This document shows, one piece after another, positions 2,780 to 44,651 of a DNA stretch of 64,000 nt (position 1 is the stretch's first letter; each line of letters opens with the position of its first letter). Below the pieces are notes generated by a model, which did not search any database, was not told the DNA's origin, and saw nothing but the letters and a program-made list of their open reading frames with translations. A program made the translations under genes and the position numbers. Source of the DNA: Candidatus Lachnocurva vaginae (GTDB lineage Bacteria; Bacillota; Clostridia; Lachnospirales; Lachnospiraceae); NCBI GenBank assembly GCA_011082265.1, contig CP049781.1, forward strand, positions 476,333 through 540,332. Direction: 5' to 3'.

Positions 2780-2793
2780 GAAATCTAAGGTGC

Positions 2794-2954
2794 GTTTCAA
2801 CCTATCTTTTAAAAACGATTCAAAAAATCTAAATTCTAGCGTTTGAATTTCTAAAATCTTTAACTCGCTTCGCTCAGACAGAAAGATTTTTACGAAATTT
2901 AAACGAAGAATTTAAACGATTTTTCTCATATATTTTTAAAAGATAGGTTGAAAC
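2794..2954. repeat. ~160-bp imperfect palindrome with perfect 22-bp outer arms (gtttcaacctatcttttaaaaa / tttttaaaagataggttgaaac); probably doubles as a terminator
   Basis: The arms at 2794-2815 and 2933-2954 are exact reverse complements. The inner 50 bp of each arm is also largely complementary. Confidence 0.8.
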
Positions 2955-3056
2955 TTATTAGATTCATTGAGAGTTTGATTATTAAAATATAATTTTATTA
3001 ATTTCAAACATTTATCCGATTTTAGTATAACAATTAAATTTTATAGGAGAAATTGC

Positions 3057-4094
3057 GTGAGACTTGGTATTTTAGGTTCAGGGAAGATTGTTGAAGAATT
3101 TTTAACCGTAATTGATAAGCTTGATTTTGAAAGCGTTGATATTTTATCAACCGAAAGATCAAAAGATAAAGCTGAGAAGATGGCGAAAGATTTTAATCTT
3201 CGAGATACTTATACGGACTATGATAAGATGCTTAAAAGTGATATTGATGCCGTGTATGTGGCACTTCCTAATTTCCTTCATTTTGAATATGCTAAAAAAG
3301 CGATTTTGGCAGGGAAAAATGTTATTTGTGAAAAGCCGATAACAAGCACTTTTAGAGAATTTATTGAACTTAAAGAACTTGCTTTAAAAAAGAAGTTGTT
3401 TTTAATTGAAGCGGTTACGATTCACGAGATGCCTTCGTACATTTCTTTAAAAGAAAAAATAAAAGAGCTTGGCGATTTAAAACTTATTTGCCTTAATTAT
3501 TCTCAGTACTCTTCACGGTACAATGCATTTATGGAAGGAAAGAAGGCACCGGTTTTTGATTATCATAAATCGGGAGGCGTTTTATACGACCTTAATGTAT
3601 ACAATGTAAATTTTGTGGTCGGATTATTTGGAAAGCCGGTAAAGATTTCTTATACCGCAAATGTGAAAGAAAATGTTGATACAAGCGGGATTATGGTTTT
3701 AGAATATCCGGGATTCAGAGCGGTGTTAGTTGGAGCAAAAGATACCGAAACAGGATTTATTAATGCAGTCGAAGGAACAAAAGCTCATATTGAAATCAAT
3801 ATGCCGGTTTCAAGAATGACAGGATATAAGCTTATTTACAATAAAAAAATCTCCGGAAATTCAATAGATTATGAAAATGTAGAGTATAAAAACACAGGGT
3901 ATGAAAATATAGAGTATAAAGATAAAGATAAACATCATGCAATGTATTATGAATTTACTGAATTTAAAAGGATGATAGAAAATAAAGACTACGAAAAGAT
4001 GAACGAATTACTTTCTATTTCCGAAACGGTTTCCTATATCTTAGAAAAAGGAAGAAAGGACGCCGGAATATATTTTGATGCCGATATGAAGTAA
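3057..4094 (+). CDS. Gfo/Idh/MocA family NAD(P)-dependent oxidoreductase
   Basis: N-terminal Rossmann motif GILGSGKI, an EKP motif (ICEKP), a GTG start and a GGAG RBS. Confidence 0.75.
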   Translation: MRLGILGSGKIVEEFLTVIDKLDFESVDILSTERSKDKAEKMAKDFNLRDTYTDYDKMLKSDIDAVYVALPNFLHFEYAKKAILAGKNVICEKPITSTFREFIELKELALKKKLFLIEAVTIHEMPSYISLKEKIKELGDLKLICLNYSQYSSRYNAFMEGKKAPVFDYHKSGGVLYDLNVYNVNFVVGLFGKPVKISYTANVKENVDTSGIMVLEYPGFRAVLVGAKDTETGFINAVEGTKAHIEINMPVSRMTGYKLIYNKKISGNSIDYENVEYKNTGYENIEYKDKDKHHAMYYEFTEFKRMIENKDYEKMNELLSISETVSYILEKGRKDAGIYFDADMK

Positions 4095-4164
4095 GCACGA
4101 CATATATTTTAACTTCCATGTTACGTGGATATAGTAAATAATGTTAATTAATATACCGCCTTAG

Positions 4165-4216
4165 TTTTAAAGCACGAAACAAAAAATTTGACGCTTTAAA
4201 ACTATGGTGGTATAAT
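4165..4216 (+). promoter_or_regulatory. sigma-A-type promoter (TTGACG-17-TATAAT) overlapped by a 9-bp inverted repeat; candidate operator for the HTH of the downstream methyltransferase
   Basis: -35 at 4188-4193, -10 at 4211-4216. The inverted repeat is ttttaaagc (4165-4173) / gctttaaaa (4193-4201). Confidence 0.5.
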
Positions 4217-4256: not shown

Positions 4257-5822
4257 ATGAAAGCATGCTACACTAAACTTTGGAAAAAATTAATAGATAA
4301 TCAAATGAATAAAACGGATTTACGTAAAAAAGCAAAGATAAGCAGCAGTACGCTTGCTAAGATGAGTAAGCAAGAAATGATTAGCTCAGATGTACTATCC
4401 AAAATATGTAATACGTTGAAATGTAGCATTGATGAAGTGGTGGATCTCGTACCTGATGATAATGAGGAATTTATTGTTGAAAATAATCCTAATAAATTAA
4501 AAGTTATATCTTTATTTTCAGGAGCAGGAGGCATGGATTTAGGGTTTCTAAATGCCGGTTTTGAAATTATATGGGCTAATGATTTTTTTAAAGATGCGGT
4601 AAATTCTTATAGGAAAAATGTCGGAAAACATATAGTATATGGAGATATTACTAAAATATCAGATAAAGATATTCCGGATGGAGCTGATGTTATTATAGGC
4701 GGATTCCCATGTCAAGGATTTTCTGTTGCAAATATTAAACGATCCATGAAAGATCGAAGGAATTTTTTATATAAAGAAATGTTAAGAATCATTGCAGATA
4801 AAAAACCTAAATTTTTTGTGGCAGAAAACGTTAAAGGTTTATTATCTATTGAAAATGGAAAAGTTTTTAAAATGATAAAATCTGATTTTGAAAACTTAAA
4901 AGATAAAAATGGAAATCCAATTGGATATAATGTTGATGCGAGAATTTTAAATGCCGCTGAGTATGGAGTTCCACAAAATAGAGAACGTTTGGTTATTATG
5001 GGAAATAGAATAGGAATTGATAATCCTTATCCGAAGCCTACTCATTATATAGAAACATCTTTAAATAGCAAAAACTTATTACCTGCTATGACAACAAAGC
5101 AGGCTATAGGTTTTTTACTTAATAAGAAAATTACTAATAATGAGATAATTATCAGTAAAAAAGAGTTAGAAGAACATATACAAAAAATGAATATAGCTGA
5201 TGTTTCGGGATTTTATGCGAATTTGGGTGTCAGTCAGAATGAAGAAAAATATACTATTAAAAATCATATAGCGTCAGAAAATGTTGCAGATAAATTTTGG
5301 GGAAGAAAATATGAAGTTAATCAGCACGATATTTGTAATTATTTAAGATATTGGAGAGATAAGTCCGGTTGGACAACAAAAAAAGTTGACAAGCATTTTG
5401 GATATTCTTATACTGCAGGTCATTGGTTTAGAAAAGATAATAATTCAGGAAGTATTCCAAAACCGGAAGATTGGTGGGAATTAAAAAAAATTTTTGGCTT
5501 TGATGACAAATATGATAAGCAAGTAACTACGTTAATTGAGAAAAAAATAAAATTTGAGCAATCACTAAGAATTACTAACTGGGACAGACCTAGTGACACT
5601 ATTACCGCCACTAGTCCTGAAATAGCAGTAAATAAGAAAAGAAGATTAAGCGTTAGAGAATGTGCTATATTGCAAACATTTCCATTAGGCTATGAATTTA
5701 CCGGAAGTTTAAACAAAATGTACACTCAAATAGGAAATGCTGTCCCGGTTAGGCTAGCTACACAAATTGCAAATGAAATTTGTAAAGCAATCGAAAAGTA
5801 TAATGAATCAAATAAAAAATGA
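4257..5822 (+). CDS. DNA (cytosine-5)-methyltransferase with an N-terminal XRE-type HTH domain (SsoII/EcoRII-like autoregulatory architecture)
   Basis: Motif I FSGAGGMDLGF, motif IV GFPCQGFS, motif VI ENV, motif X QIGNAVPV. There is a long variable region between motifs VIII and IX. The N-terminal ~60 aa resembles a Cro/C1 HTH. Confidence 0.9.
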   Translation: MKACYTKLWKKLIDNQMNKTDLRKKAKISSSTLAKMSKQEMISSDVLSKICNTLKCSIDEVVDLVPDDNEEFIVENNPNKLKVISLFSGAGGMDLGFLNAGFEIIWANDFFKDAVNSYRKNVGKHIVYGDITKISDKDIPDGADVIIGGFPCQGFSVANIKRSMKDRRNFLYKEMLRIIADKKPKFFVAENVKGLLSIENGKVFKMIKSDFENLKDKNGNPIGYNVDARILNAAEYGVPQNRERLVIMGNRIGIDNPYPKPTHYIETSLNSKNLLPAMTTKQAIGFLLNKKITNNEIIISKKELEEHIQKMNIADVSGFYANLGVSQNEEKYTIKNHIASENVADKFWGRKYEVNQHDICNYLRYWRDKSGWTTKKVDKHFGYSYTAGHWFRKDNNSGSIPKPEDWWELKKIFGFDDKYDKQVTTLIEKKIKFEQSLRITNWDRPSDTITATSPEIAVNKKRRLSVRECAILQTFPLGYEFTGSLNKMYTQIGNAVPVRLATQIANEICKAIEKYNESNKK

Positions 5823-5828
5823 GTATTA

Positions 5829-6647
5829 TTAATTTAATGTTGGATCAAAATTATCAAGATAGAATTTTAGCTTTTTCTTTACGTAGTCAGACATATCAGG
5901 ATTTTTATGAATAATTCTTACTCTCTTTTCATTACCGTTTAATAATTCAAAGTTCGGTACTGCACTAAAATTAAATCTTGCTTTACCGGGATTTTTGCCG
6001 GCTTTTAAAGGTCTGGATTTATACTTCTCTTTTAATCTGCCGTTAGGAAGGCACATAATAGAAATTAGTTCACATTTTTGAGTCACGGAACTATTTAACA
6101 TACATACAAAATATGTTAAGGTTATTTTTTTAGTGCCATCTGATTTAGTATAAAATACAGGTAAGTTGGGCTTATATATTTCATTATTACCGTTAGTTTT
6201 TAGTATTTCAGCACTATATGAATTTTGATTTTCACCAACAAAAATACAAGTATTGAAATCTCCTATGTTATCATTTTTACTTGTGCCTTCATTTGTTGTT
6301 ACGCTTTTTAAATCAATATGTATATAAGCATCTTCTACTTCAAAAAACAAATCGGAGCTTACAGGACAAGAATTCGGTTGACCAGCAATTTTACCATTAA
6401 GAAGAGCATATACAATTCTTTCACTTCCTACGTCAAATTCTGATATACCGCTGTTATTATTGCCATAAAGTCCTTTCCAATCGTTTAAAATTTCCTCTTT
6501 TGAAAGCATTCCACGGACGATATCATCTTCTGCAAATTTCAAAAAATACCAATATTTCATCAAATATTTGTATTCTAATTGCTCAATTTCCTCAAGCGTT
6601 AGTTGATCTGCTTGTTTATGATTAATATCATACATATTAAAATCCAT
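5829..6647 (-). CDS. putative Type II restriction endonuclease (uncharacterised family) paired with the C5-MTase
   Basis: It is convergent with and 6 bp from the MTase stop. It has no recognisable housekeeping motifs. A PD-(D/E)XK-like stretch is possible (SDLFFEVED...IDLK). Extended -10 promoter TGATATAAT upstream on the minus strand. Confidence 0.45.
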   Translation of the reverse strand: MDFNMYDINHKQADQLTLEEIEQLEYKYLMKYWYFLKFAEDDIVRGMLSKEEILNDWKGLYGNNNSGISEFDVGSERIVYALLNGKIAGQPNSCPVSSDLFFEVEDAYIHIDLKSVTTNEGTSKNDNIGDFNTCIFVGENQNSYSAEILKTNGNNEIYKPNLPVFYTKSDGTKKITLTYFVCMLNSSVTQKCELISIMCLPNGRLKEKYKSRPLKAGKNPGKARFNFSAVPNFELLNGNEKRVRIIHKNPDMSDYVKKKLKFYLDNFDPTLN

Positions 6648-6737
6648 CGTAATATCACATCCTTTACAGAATACATATAAAAATTAAATTTAGTTAATTA
6701 TATCAAAAAAAATATAAAAAGTAATGTTATATATTGA

Positions 6738-6751
6738 CGAACATATGTTTG
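6738..6751. promoter_or_regulatory. LexA (Cheo-type) box-like palindrome cGAACATATGTTTg in the divergent promoter region between the endonuclease gene and the small ORF
   Basis: One mismatch to the Firmicutes consensus CGAACATATGTTCG. Same 12-mer class as the recA box in this window. Flanked by two TTGAC motifs. Confidence 0.5.
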
Positions 6752-6796
6752 ACTGATAAGCTATTAATAGGCGTTGATTATGTAAGGAGGGTATAT

Positions 6797-7024
6797 ATGT
6801 TTGCAATGAATCTTTTAGATGTTACCGACCATGATACAGAATATGGAATGCTAATTTGCTGTAATAATGATATTGACGAGAATATCATACAAAATAAAGT
6901 TATGGAAATAAAAAACATATTTGAAGCTAATAAAGAAGATTGGAATATTAGGGATATTATTAGTAAGATGCCAAAAAATTGGCAAATTATTTTGCAACCT
7001 ATTAGTAAAAATATTATGATATAA
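6797..7024 (+). CDS. small acidic hypothetical protein (75 aa) downstream of the LexA-like box
   Basis: ATG at 6797 preceded by a strong RBS AAGGAGGG. The track ORF 6734-7024 starts at an upstream TTG without an RBS. Confidence 0.5.
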   Translation: MFAMNLLDVTDHDTEYGMLICCNNDIDENIIQNKVMEIKNIFEANKEDWNIRDIISKMPKNWQIILQPISKNIMI

Positions 7025-9217: not shown

Positions 9218-10531
<1,314 letters not shown>

Positions 10532-10605
10532 AAGAATAGTGTGAATTTAGCTATAGTTTATATGATTTTTAAATTTATATATTCTTTAATAAAAAAGATT
10601 TTTTT

Positions 10606-10642
10606 AGAAGTGTTGATTATTTTAGTCGACACTTCTTTTTTT
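10606..10642 (+). terminator. rho-independent terminator after eno
   Basis: agaagtgt-(15 nt loop)-acacttct followed by TTTTTTT. Confidence 0.75.
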
Positions 10643-10648
10643 GTTAAA

Positions 10649-10778
10649 ATTATTTATATAGGAGATTATTTATACCGAAAATTACTTATATAGGAGATTA
10701 TTTATATCGAAAATTACTTATATAGGAGATTATTTATATCGAAAATTACTGATATAGAAAATTATTTATGTATTGAAA
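10649..10778. repeat. array of eight 16-bp tandem repeats (consensus attatttatataggag / attatttatatcgaaa alternating as a 32-bp super-unit)
   Basis: Units fall at 10649, 10665, 10681, 10697, 10713, 10729, 10745 and 10761. More diverged copies follow to about 10830. Confidence 0.85.
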
Positions 10779-10997
10779 TTTTGATTTATATGAAAAATGG
10801 TTTAGAAATTATTTATATATAGAAAAATTTCTTTAGAAGGGCTGATTGCCTTTTTATCAATAATTCTTTTATTTTTATACATATTTTATGAATAATAGGG
10901 TATGATATAGAAAGTCGGTAAGACAAAGTTAAAGTTATATCATATAAAATCTTATGTACTAAGATTATAAAATTGTAAAAAATATATTTTTAAAAAG

Positions 10998-11054
10998 TTG
11001 ACAATTAAAAACAAAAATACTATTATAAAAACATAAAATCGAACATGTGTTTCG
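10998..11054 (+). promoter_or_regulatory. recA promoter (TTGACA-17-TATTAT) followed by a LexA/Cheo-like box cGAACATGTGTTTcg
   Basis: -35 at 10998-11003, -10 at 11021-11026. The palindrome at 11040-11054 reads GAAC-N4-GTTT, one mismatch to GAAC-N4-GTTC. Confidence 0.6.
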
Positions 11055-11083
11055 ATATTCGATTATTTTAAGTGGAGGATTAT

Positions 11084-42926: not shown

Positions 42927-44651
42927 GTGATTGCGATTGTAAAACGAATATTAAAAATATCAGGGAAATATCGAAAAAATGTAATCCTTGGTCTTATATT
43001 TAGTGGATTAAAATCATTTTTCGTTTCTTTGATGTTGTTGGCGGTTTTATTGATTATGATTAATCTTAAACAATTGAACATGACTATTATTATGCAGGCA
43101 ACAGCGATTATAGTTGTGAGTATATTCGGCAGATTCATATTTCAGTATCTTTGCGATAGAAAACTTAGTGCTTCAGGCTACGAGATTTTTAAGGATAAAA
43201 GAATTGAAATAGGCGAAAAATTAAAGAAAGCTCCGATGGGATATTTTTCAGAAAAAAACTTAGGGACAATTCAAGCTGTTCTAACGACAACTATTTCCGA
43301 CTTAGAAGCTATGGCAATGCTTGCAATGAACTTTATTGTTGGTGGGTTTTTCCAAGCTCTAACTATGACAATCATGTTATTAATCTTTTGTTTCCCGGTA
43401 GGGATGGTGTCTTTAATTGCGATAATCTTTGGAATAGTTGTTCTTAAATTAATCACAAAGAAAACTGAAAAATATTCTCCTATTATGCAAGATTCGCAGG
43501 AAATATTAGTTACAGAAGCAATTGAATATATCAGAGGAATTTCTGTGCTTCGTTCATTTAAGAAAGGGACTGATGGAAAAAATAAAGTTGAAAAAGCTTT
43601 TATGAGGAAATGCGAAGTTGATATTGAGGTCAATGAAGGTTCAGCTTATTTAATGAAATTATATGAAATGATTTTCAAGGTAGCAAGTTGTGCTTTAGTG
43701 TTTGTTGCTACGGTTTTATATATGAATTCACAAATTCCACTTTCATATGCACTGATGTTTATAGTATCTGCCTTTCTGATTTTTTTGGAATTGGAGTTGG
43801 TCAGCGATGGAGCTTTTTTAAGTAGGATGCTTGCAACACAACTTAATAGACTGGAATATATTTCGGATATACCTTCACTTGATGATGGTGGAAAAGAGAT
43901 TGATTTGGATTCCTATGATATTGAATTGAAAGATGTTTGTTTCGGCTATGGAGAAAGGGAGATTTTGAATAATATAAACTTGCAAATAAAGTCTAATAGC
44001 AGTTTAGCCATTGTGGGTGCTTCAGGTTCTGGGAAAACAACGCTATGTAATCTGATAGCAAGATTTTGGGATGTAAAAAAAGGTGAAGTTCTTATTGGTG
44101 GAAATAATGTTAAGGATTTTACTTCTGAAAGCCTTTTAAAAAATATCAGTATGGTATTTCAGAAGGTGTATTTGTTTAATGACACGATCGAAAACAATAT
44201 AAAATTTGGAAATCCTAATGCTACACACGAAGAGGTGGTAGAGGCTTGCAAGAAAGCATGCTGTCATGAATTTATAACAAGCCTTAGTGATGGGTACGAT
44301 ACTGTTGTTGGTGAAGGCGGATCAACATTATCCGGAGGAGAAAAACAGAGAATTTCAATTGCACGAGCAATTCTTAAGGATGCTCCAATTATTATACTTG
44401 ATGAGGCAACATCAAGCGTAGATCCTGAAAACGAGTATATGTTAATCAGTGCAATTAAGGAATTAACAAAAAATAAAACGCTTATTAGTATTGCACATAG
44501 ACTATCTACAGTAAGAGAAGCAGATCAAATTATTGTCATTGATAAAGGTAGAATTGTGCAATGGGGAAATCATAAGGAACTAATTGGTCAAGATGGAGTA
44601 TATAAACATTTCATTGAAATAAAAAAACAATCTATTGGCTGGCAAATATAG
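42927..44651 (+). CDS. ABC exporter, fused permease-ATPase (heterodimer partner)
   Basis: 6-TM domain, GASGSGKTT Walker A, LSGGEKQR signature. Start overlaps the upstream stop. Confidence 0.85.
   Translation: MIAIVKRILKISGKYRKNVILGLIFSGLKSFFVSLMLLAVLLIMINLKQLNMTIIMQATAIIVVSIFGRFIFQYLCDRKLSASGYEIFKDKRIEIGEKLKKAPMGYFSEKNLGTIQAVLTTTISDLEAMAMLAMNFIVGGFFQALTMTIMLLIFCFPVGMVSLIAIIFGIVVLKLITKKTEKYSPIMQDSQEILVTEAIEYIRGISVLRSFKKGTDGKNKVEKAFMRKCEVDIEVNEGSAYLMKLYEMIFKVASCALVFVATVLYMNSQIPLSYALMFIVSAFLIFLELELVSDGAFLSRMLATQLNRLEYISDIPSLDDGGKEIDLDSYDIELKDVCFGYGEREILNNINLQIKSNSSLAIVGASGSGKTTLCNLIARFWDVKKGEVLIGGNNVKDFTSESLLKNISMVFQKVYLFNDTIENNIKFGNPNATHEEVVEACKKACCHEFITSLSDGYDTVVGEGGSTLSGGEKQRISIARAILKDAPIIILDEATSSVDPENEYMLISAIKELTKNKTLISIAHRLSTVREADQIIVIDKGRIVQWGNHKELIGQDGVYKHFIEIKKQSIGWQI

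Follow-up and report, generated by a model that had tools for sequence, protein, structure and literature searches.

The palindrome CGAACATATGTTTG at positions 6738-6751 of the Candidatus Lachnocurva vaginae DNA analysed here (a stretch of 64 kb, referred to as the window) is probably a LexA operator, lying in the spacer between the -35 and extended -10 elements of the promoter of a 75-aa gene that adjoins a Type II restriction-modification (R-M) cassette. LexA control of the small gene, as predicted by comparative sequence analysis, is well supported: the statistics of the site, its conservation in eight lineages, the recA boxes of related species and the presence of a lexA gene behind the box in one lineage all point to a Cheo-type operator. 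A predicted SOS-controlled small gene at this place suggests a damage-triggered control on restriction.

A predicted LexA operator in the promoter of a small gene

The published circular genome of Ca. Lachnocurva vaginae (BVAB1) comprises 1,649,642 bp with 31.8% GC (PMC7136613). In the window, an oxidoreductase gene (3057-4094, forward strand) is followed by the gene of a 521-aa C5 cytosine DNA methyltransferase (4257-5822, forward strand; Pfam DNA_methylase 1.8e-78 and HTH_26 9.1e-15, NCBIfam dcm 5.7e-75). This methylase carries an N-terminal Cro/C1-type HTH, with the HTH_26 match at residues 7-67 preceding the DNA_methylase domain. Convergent with it lies the gene of a Type II restriction endonuclease candidate (R; 5829-6647, reverse strand; precomputed Pfam match to MwoI_N), which encodes 272 aa from the ATG at 6647 or 268 aa from the ATG chosen by the gene caller at 6635. 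Its invariant residues D95, E99, D102, D108 and K110 fit a PD-(D/E)XK core. A total of 913 endonuclease homologs were found, and a methylase partner was present in 77 of 85 loci.

The 75-aa ORF (6797-7024, forward strand) comes next, and downstream of it are, in order, rpsU, prfC, eno, recA, recX and rny. This gene order was the same in all 11 distinct same-species contigs examined, while related rumen species have other genes between alaS and rpsU. In the synteny of prfC across GTDB genomes (80 loci returned, the source species not among them) only the order prfC-recA-recX was common. No convincing direct or inverted repeats marking the ends of the cassette were detected in the window, nor is the cassette flanked there by integrase, excisionase, primase-helicase, small terminase or capsid genes.

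The segment 6738-6751 holds cGAACATATGTTTg; this site and the recA box at 11040-11054 (CGAACATGTGTTTCG, taken as the reference LexA box) are the only two GAAC-N4-GTTY sites of the 64-kb window, and both fall in promoters. A previous reading of the sequence alone (the sequence-only reading) had stated that GAACAT(A/G)TGTTT occurs only twice in 64 kb and that the 6738 site is one mismatch away from the Firmicutes Cheo box. Both statements hold. The motif GAACATRTGTTT was found at 6739-6750 and 11041-11052, against an expected count of 0.03, and none of 100 shuffles reached two occurrences; the 14-mer CGAACATATGTTTG differs from CGAACATATGTTCG at a single position. On both strands of the window, GAACNNNNGTTY matched only the two box sites, and this loose pattern is not enriched (2 versus 2.9 expected).

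Boxes of the form CGAAC-N4-GTTYG are present in the recA promoters of nine related Lachnospiraceae. A PWM was built exclusively from the recA boxes of nine other Lachnospiraceae species, the source species being left out. With this matrix the 6738 site reached 19.8 bits, the best score in the window, followed by the species' own recA box (13.3 bits) and by a third-best match within a coding region (11.3 bits). Matches of at least 19.8 bits are expected 0.005 times per 64 kb, or roughly 0.1 times per 1.65-Mb genome.

The 150-bp intergenic region 6648-6796 contains two back-to-back promoters, one for the endonuclease gene (reverse strand) and one for the 75-aa ORF (forward strand). In the latter, the box occupies the spacer between the -35 element TTGACG (6734-6739) of the predicted SOS-controlled promoter and a putative extended -10 element, TGATAAGCT (6754-6762), 17 nt after the -35. 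A ribosome-binding site, AAGGAGG, follows at 6784-6790, and the ATG of the ORF (6797) is 46 bp past the box, in line with the earlier estimate of about 45 bp. The two TTGAC motifs that had been said to flank the box are indeed there, at 6734-6738 and 6749-6753.

On the opposite strand, the endonuclease promoter has the extended -10 element TGATATAAT (6697-6705), kept as ATTATATCA at the endonuclease promoter in every lineage having the small ORF. Its distance to the box is 33-54 bp, a little less than the 'about 60 bp' first given. The box is situated upstream of the -35 region of the endonuclease gene, with a spacing that differs by 7 bp among lineages, and direct SOS modulation of the endonuclease promoter, one of the options raised by the sequence-only reading, is therefore unlikely.

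Variation within the species is concentrated in this region. All five variable sites of 691 bp (6666, 6700, 6739, 6750 and 6754) are within the 150-bp regulatory region. Of these, 6739 G>A, 6750 T>C and 6754 T>C are linked; the three changes are found in 8 of the 11 distinct same-species contigs and alter both half-sites with the motif kept: GAACATATGTTT becomes AAACATATGTTC, which is the same motif on the opposite strand. The commoner allele has A at box position 1, retains GAAC on the opposite strand and scores 20.1 bits in the PWM versus 19.8 bits for the window allele. It also has a better -35 element (TTGACA) and has lost the TG of the extended -10. A separate change, 6700 A>G, present in two contigs, weakens the endonuclease -10 from TATAAT to TACAAT.

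In the recA promoter, the box is placed 13 bp downstream of the -10 element (TATTAT, 11021-11026). From this box, the presence of LexA in the source genome can be inferred; apart from recA, the window contains no canonical SOS gene. A tblastn search of the 64-kb window with an approximate B. subtilis LexA query found no lexA; weak collinear matches at 43961-44425 were rejected, as they are inside an ABC-transporter gene. The eno-recA intergenic region (10532-11083) is unusually long (about 550 bp) and AT-rich, with 22.5% GC around 10401-11000. Its length differs between strains, and the recA start moves in steps of 32 bp among same-species loci. No Rfam family (riboswitch, leader or small RNA) reached its gathering score anywhere in the 64 kb, a result a little unexpected for a window with ribosomal-protein and aminoacyl-tRNA-synthetase neighbourhoods.

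Conservation of the promoter and linkage to an R-M sub-clade

A metagenome scan with an alignment of endonuclease homologs yielded 80 R-M loci, and further loci were obtained via profile searches and context look-ups. By tblastn, homologs of the small ORF were detected in 7 of the 80 R-M loci, all of them divergent from the endonuclease gene as in the window. The promoter sequences of the eight lineages compared are TTGACGAACATATGTTTGACTGATAAGCT (window), TTGACAGAACATATGTTTGGTTATAAT (L104/L183), TTGACAGAACAAATGTTCGATATTATAAT (L135), TTGACAAGAACGTATGTTTGGTGGTAATCT (L117), TTGACAAGAACATATGTTTGATGATAATCT (L118), TTGACAGAACATATGTTCTGCTATAAAAT (L184), TTGACAAGAACGTATGTTCGATGTTATTTT (L187) and TTGACAGAACATATGTTCTGTAGTATGGT (L191). 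All eight diverged lineages keep TTGAC(A/G)-[A]GAAC-N4-GTTY, with TTGACA/G directly before the box, a -10 at 17-18 nt and the promoter pointing away from the endonuclease gene; the -10 equivalents in the other lineages are (TGn)TAnnnT or TATAAT elements 17-18 nt past the -35. Box positions G1, A2, A3 and C4, as well as G9, T10 and T11, are invariant across the eight lineages, while the N4 core and the flanks vary. Since promoter spacers are normally without sequence constraint, this footprint points to a bound factor of LexA-box specificity.

In four loci (L117, L120, L121 and L128) the box promoter is separated from the small ORF by a lexA-type gene of 201 aa. Its product passes the NCBIfam lexA equivalog cut-off (115.5 versus 110.95 bits), matches Peptidase_S24 (5.9e-25), and has the GESM serine and KR lysine motifs and a Cys-Gly at the position of the cleavage site. 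A box ahead of lexA is the classic layout of autoregulation. The idea that an SOS-type operator overlaps the small-ORF promoter beside a Type II R-M system thus receives strong support from phylogenetic footprinting and from the lexA gene behind the box. Two of the lineages show partial decay next to an intact small ORF: the cassette lexA is frameshifted in L118 (about 2790-3390) and the endonuclease gene is truncated to 176 codons in L135 (3480-4010).

The 75-aa protein is acidic (pI 4.5) and, as judged from profile searches, dN/dS and a structural model, represents an undescribed family. A single-sequence search with the small ORF matched only itself; homologs were reached by tblastn on R-M loci and then by profile searches. 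The family amounted to 14 members by a word-indexed search and to 111 cluster representatives by an exhaustive HMM search, nearly all of 70-80 aa and all acidic (median pI 4.25). Homologs are 35-48% identical, with dN/dS values of 0.12-0.28 and largely saturated synonymous sites.

Pfam, PHROG and NCBIfam contain no family matching the 75-aa protein, and Pfam and PHROG scans of 61 family members plus 10 longer members gave nothing informative. The AlphaFold model (pLDDT 75.8) has a beta-beta-alpha-alpha-beta order; a fold search with this model against PDB and BFVD returned no match at E below 0.1, and a sequence search of PDB no meaningful match. Nothing was matched by tblastn of the small ORF and one distant member against INPHARED phages and PLSDB plasmids, and a scan of viral contigs with the small-ORF alignment found no relative. 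One distant family member is located within a long array of small same-strand ORFs, resembling a phage early region. Neither Pfam nor NCBIfam detects an HTH in the small ORF, and the protein has no membrane segment. A damage-induced division inhibitor, as had been suggested, is unsupported, because the protein lacks a membrane segment and is linked to R-M.

This linkage was quantified in close cassettes, for which an endonuclease identity of 60% or more and sufficient upstream sequence were required. Box and small ORF are both present in 14 of these loci and both absent from 20. The ORF never occurs without the box, and the four loci with a box alone comprise a cut contig, an artefact and two unrelated sites. 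Box and small ORF therefore co-occur in 14 of 14 loci, and both are missing from 20 of 34 close and from 40 of 40 distant cassettes of the same R-M family. The small ORF always adjoins R, the only member found without R being L186, behind an IS fragment. The sequence-only reading had placed the small ORF within the R-M module. What stands of this is the linkage in one sub-clade; the ORF is no core component and, because most cassettes of the R-M family lack it, has to be considered an accessory of that sub-clade.

The cassette occurs in two kinds of setting. In L183 and L184 it is inside an integrative element of roughly 12 kb with hallmarks of phage satellites (PICI-like genes). The first part of the order is excisionase, HTH-methylase, EVE-domain gene, R2 (a distant nuclease paralog of R) and R; divergent from R follow the box promoter, the small ORF, a 72-73-aa ORF, primase-helicase, small terminase, major head protein, excisionase and integrase. 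L128 and L117 have a truncated primase fused to an integrase fragment, and in L191/L192 the R2 gene is directly behind the small ORF, on the strand of the SOS promoter. The bare trio of methylase, endonuclease and small ORF is found at two unrelated chromosomal sites, that of the window and, in L187, between PTS and thiI genes.

Other cargo is found in satellites that share the backbone and have 55-59% identical primases: at that spot they carry a standalone HTH and an N6 methylase, and they have neither the small ORF nor the SOS box. These satellites and the co-occurrence counts indicate that the small ORF and the SOS promoter belong to the R-M sub-clade and not to the satellite backbone. On this comparative evidence, HTH-methylase, endonuclease, SOS promoter and small protein form a self-contained cargo cassette, carried bare in chromosomes or in satellite-like elements.

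Candidate binders and possible functions

A second palindrome of the cassette is related to the box. The 15-bp palindrome GAAACAAAAAATTTG (4176-4190) is a candidate operator of the methylase's own N-terminal HTH, and it is centred in a 22-nt inverted repeat (4152-4173 and 4193-4214, 91% complementary). It abuts the -35 of the methylase promoter (4188-4216, forward strand), which consists of TTGACG (4188-4193), a 17-nt spacer and TATAAT (4211-4216), the arrangement TTGACGC...TATAAT being conserved in homologs. At the equivalent position, abutting the -35 TTGACGC, 22 of 23 distinct homologous methylase promoters have CRAAYA-N3-TGTTTG. The half-sites are common to this operator and to the LexA box CGAACA-N2-TGTTTG, and the methylase operator is one central base longer. 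Neither this easily confused operator nor the mobile-element setting had been noticed in the sequence-only reading.

The sharing of half-sites raises the question of which protein binds the box. It might be bound by the methylase N-terminal HTH rather than by LexA, with the small ORF as part of the methylase autoregulatory circuit, and the methylase is always adjacent. We consider this very unlikely, because the spacing between AAC and GTT is strictly partitioned (N5 at 22 of 23 methylase promoters versus N4 at 8 of 8 small-ORF promoters) and because the N4 box is missing from cassettes with the same HTH-methylase but without the small ORF; for these two reasons we assign the two sites to two different binders. 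Further points against the methylase HTH are the lexA gene behind the box in one lineage and the near identity of the host recA box to the 6738 box. The N5 palindrome is confined to the methylase promoter, and the endonuclease promoter is without that operator. Some cross-talk, in which the methylase HTH binds the LexA-type box, may occur. A chance AT-rich inverted repeat with no regulatory role would agree with the lack of enrichment of the loose GAACN4GTTY pattern in the window, but it is extremely improbable in view of the 0.005 matches of such quality expected per 64 kb and of the conservation of position and specificity bases in eight diverged lineages.

The predicted circuit would work as follows. 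In the undamaged cell, a LexA dimer on the 6738-6751 site would block RNA polymerase and would leave the back-to-back endonuclease promoter uncovered. Upon DNA damage, RecA-stimulated self-cleavage of LexA would free the promoter, and the small acidic protein would be made. This protein might in turn inhibit the endonuclease of the cassette. Damage, including that caused by endonuclease cuts in under-methylated host DNA, would then halt restriction until methylation and repair catch up; under-methylation, for instance when the cassette has just entered a cell or when repair synthesis has taken place, would lead to breaks and, through them, to induction of the inhibitor.

An anti-restriction role for the small protein is plausible. 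The more specific reading, that the 75-aa protein is made under LexA control and inhibits the Type II endonuclease of its own cassette, providing a damage-feedback brake, is possible but tentative. It fits the strict linkage to one endonuclease family, the survival of the ORF in decayed elements, the acidity of the protein and its relatives in phage-like early arrays. A link to restriction is also favoured by the position of R2 immediately after the small ORF in L191/L192.

The function of the small protein could also be sought outside restriction. Since the small ORF heads the primase operon in the intact satellites L183 and L184, the promoter and the ORF could be the leftover early (replication) operon of a satellite-like element, and the protein could serve that element. 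The truncated primase fused to an integrase fragment that L128 and L117 retain is compatible with such an origin. Two further points, that the R-M family works without the small ORF in most loci and that L135 has a truncated endonuclease beside an intact small ORF, speak against the restriction reading. We nevertheless regard a satellite origin as unlikely: satellites of the same backbone with 55-59% identical primases lack both ORF and box, the bare trio sits at two unrelated chromosomal sites, and purifying selection has kept the small ORF whole in elements that are otherwise decayed. Alternatively, the small protein might modulate LexA itself, following the logic of phage GIL01, which pairs host LexA at an early-promoter SOS box with a small phage protein, gp7 (PMC4551915); the common operon of lexA and small ORF in the L117 lineage would agree with this. 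Such a role, quite unlikely in our assessment, is weakened by the absence of any sequence or fold match of the small protein to a PDB entry, and it would leave the strict linkage to one endonuclease family unexplained. Inhibition of the endonuclease is our leading, tentative proposal for the small protein.

Known systems and related cassettes

LexA operators of Firmicutes (Cheo/DinR-type), such as that of recA, are likewise 14-bp palindromes of the CGAAC-N4-GTTCG class that overlap a promoter. The difference from the Firmicutes SOS regulon is in the regulated gene, here an accessory of a mobile R-M cassette and not a repair, recombination or division gene. In B. subtilis, the BsuM methylase genes ydiO-ydiP may be under LexA control. 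Mobile-element promoters under the control of host LexA include those of CTXphi rstA, SaPI operon I and coliphage 186 tum. The documented case is the early promoter P1 of phage GIL01, with gp7 (PMC4551915, PMC6182141), a protein that binds host LexA, strengthens its binding to DNA and blocks its self-cleavage (PMC4551915). The present case resembles elements of this type in the host-type SOS box at the first genes and in the small element protein and, in some copies, LexA homolog behind it. It differs in that box and gene are carried along with a Type II R-M cassette instead of the element backbone. The searches of Pfam, PHROG, NCBIfam, PDB and BFVD gave no sign of similarity of the small protein to gp7 or to antirepressors.

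Regulation of Type II R-M systems by an HTH fused to a C5 methylase is known from SsoII and Ecl18kI (PMC3978073, PMC2760811). The methylase described here also has an N-terminal HTH and, in its case, a conserved palindrome at its own promoter. In SsoII and Ecl18kI, however, R and M are divergent and share one operator, whereas here R and M are convergent, the operator is found only at the methylase promoter, and an extra gene is under a second, predicted LexA-type operator. Both SOS boxes in the early promoters of mobile elements and R-M systems regulated by a methylase HTH (PMC2760811, PMC3978073) are thus already known. Our literature searches brought up no description of a LexA-controlled new protein family that is strictly tied to a Type II R-M cassette. 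The methylase operator and the LexA box, one base of spacing apart, provide a natural system for studies of operator discrimination or cross-talk.

A host can be killed by its own Type II restriction enzyme if methylation falls behind, and the safeguards known against this are C proteins, methylase-borne repressors and antisense RNAs. To our knowledge, no Type II safeguard senses DNA damage, and restriction alleviation is documented for Type I systems only. After DNA damage, restriction by EcoKI is alleviated in a ClpXP-dependent manner (PMC11109961). The circuit proposed here would similarly lower restriction when damage or repair creates unmodified sites; the documented alleviation, in contrast, concerns Type I systems and acts by proteolysis, while inhibition of the endonuclease is our proposal. 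Anti-restriction proteins such as ArdA and Ocr (PMC3439906) are small and very acidic, as is the 75-aa protein, and are early products of mobile elements. Searches of Pfam, PHROG, NCBIfam, PDB and BFVD showed no resemblance of the small protein to ArdA, ArdB/KlcA or Ocr in either sequence or fold.

At minimum, the gene adds a new, predicted SOS-regulated member to the accessory genes of defence cassettes. Conserved, predicted to be under SOS control and tied to a single R-M subfamily, it is a testable candidate for damage-responsive control of Type II restriction. Should the protein prove to be an inhibitor, Type II systems would have their first described mechanism of restriction alleviation, and their safe acquisition a third route besides C proteins and methylase HTH domains; such an inhibitor would also explain how a convergent cassette without a C protein is safely established in new hosts. 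Ca. Lachnocurva vaginae is an uncultured bacterium associated with bacterial vaginosis, a condition treated by metronidazole. Because metronidazole damages DNA, the small gene may be switched on during therapy.

Several observations were made on related cassettes. The sequence GAACACTAGTTT is present at two loci (L125 3017-3032 and L126 578-593), some 50-100 bp upstream of an endonuclease gene with 63% identity. Their context is plasmid-like (MobC-like and IstB-like genes), the small ORF is absent and the methylase lacks the HTH; these sites may have arisen by chance. The related satellites L195 (5850-6068), L196 (6462-6674) and L199 (338-589) have a standalone HTH of 70-83 aa upstream of the primase, then an N6 adenine methylase. 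This HTH is about 40% identical to the N-terminal domain of the methylase. The arrangement suggests that the position upstream of the satellite primase is a hotspot where R-M genes are taken up as cargo, with one type of regulator in common.

The R2 paralog, 320-369 aa long, is present in many related cassettes, among them L183 (4837-5946), L184 (3651-4616), L099 (1088-2050) and L191 (2319-3428), and is related to R with an hhalign probability of 92.7%; R2 and the EVE-domain gene are both missing from the window. Control of the cassette by a C protein was considered and rejected, given that the small ORF has no HTH and that a separate HTH gene upstream of R is found only in L099. In this Anaerovoracaceae MAG, on a cut contig, a small HTH gene (1-196; HTH_3/HTH_19/HTH_31) is directly upstream of the endonuclease homolog, an arrangement suggestive of a variant of this R-M family with control of the C-protein type.
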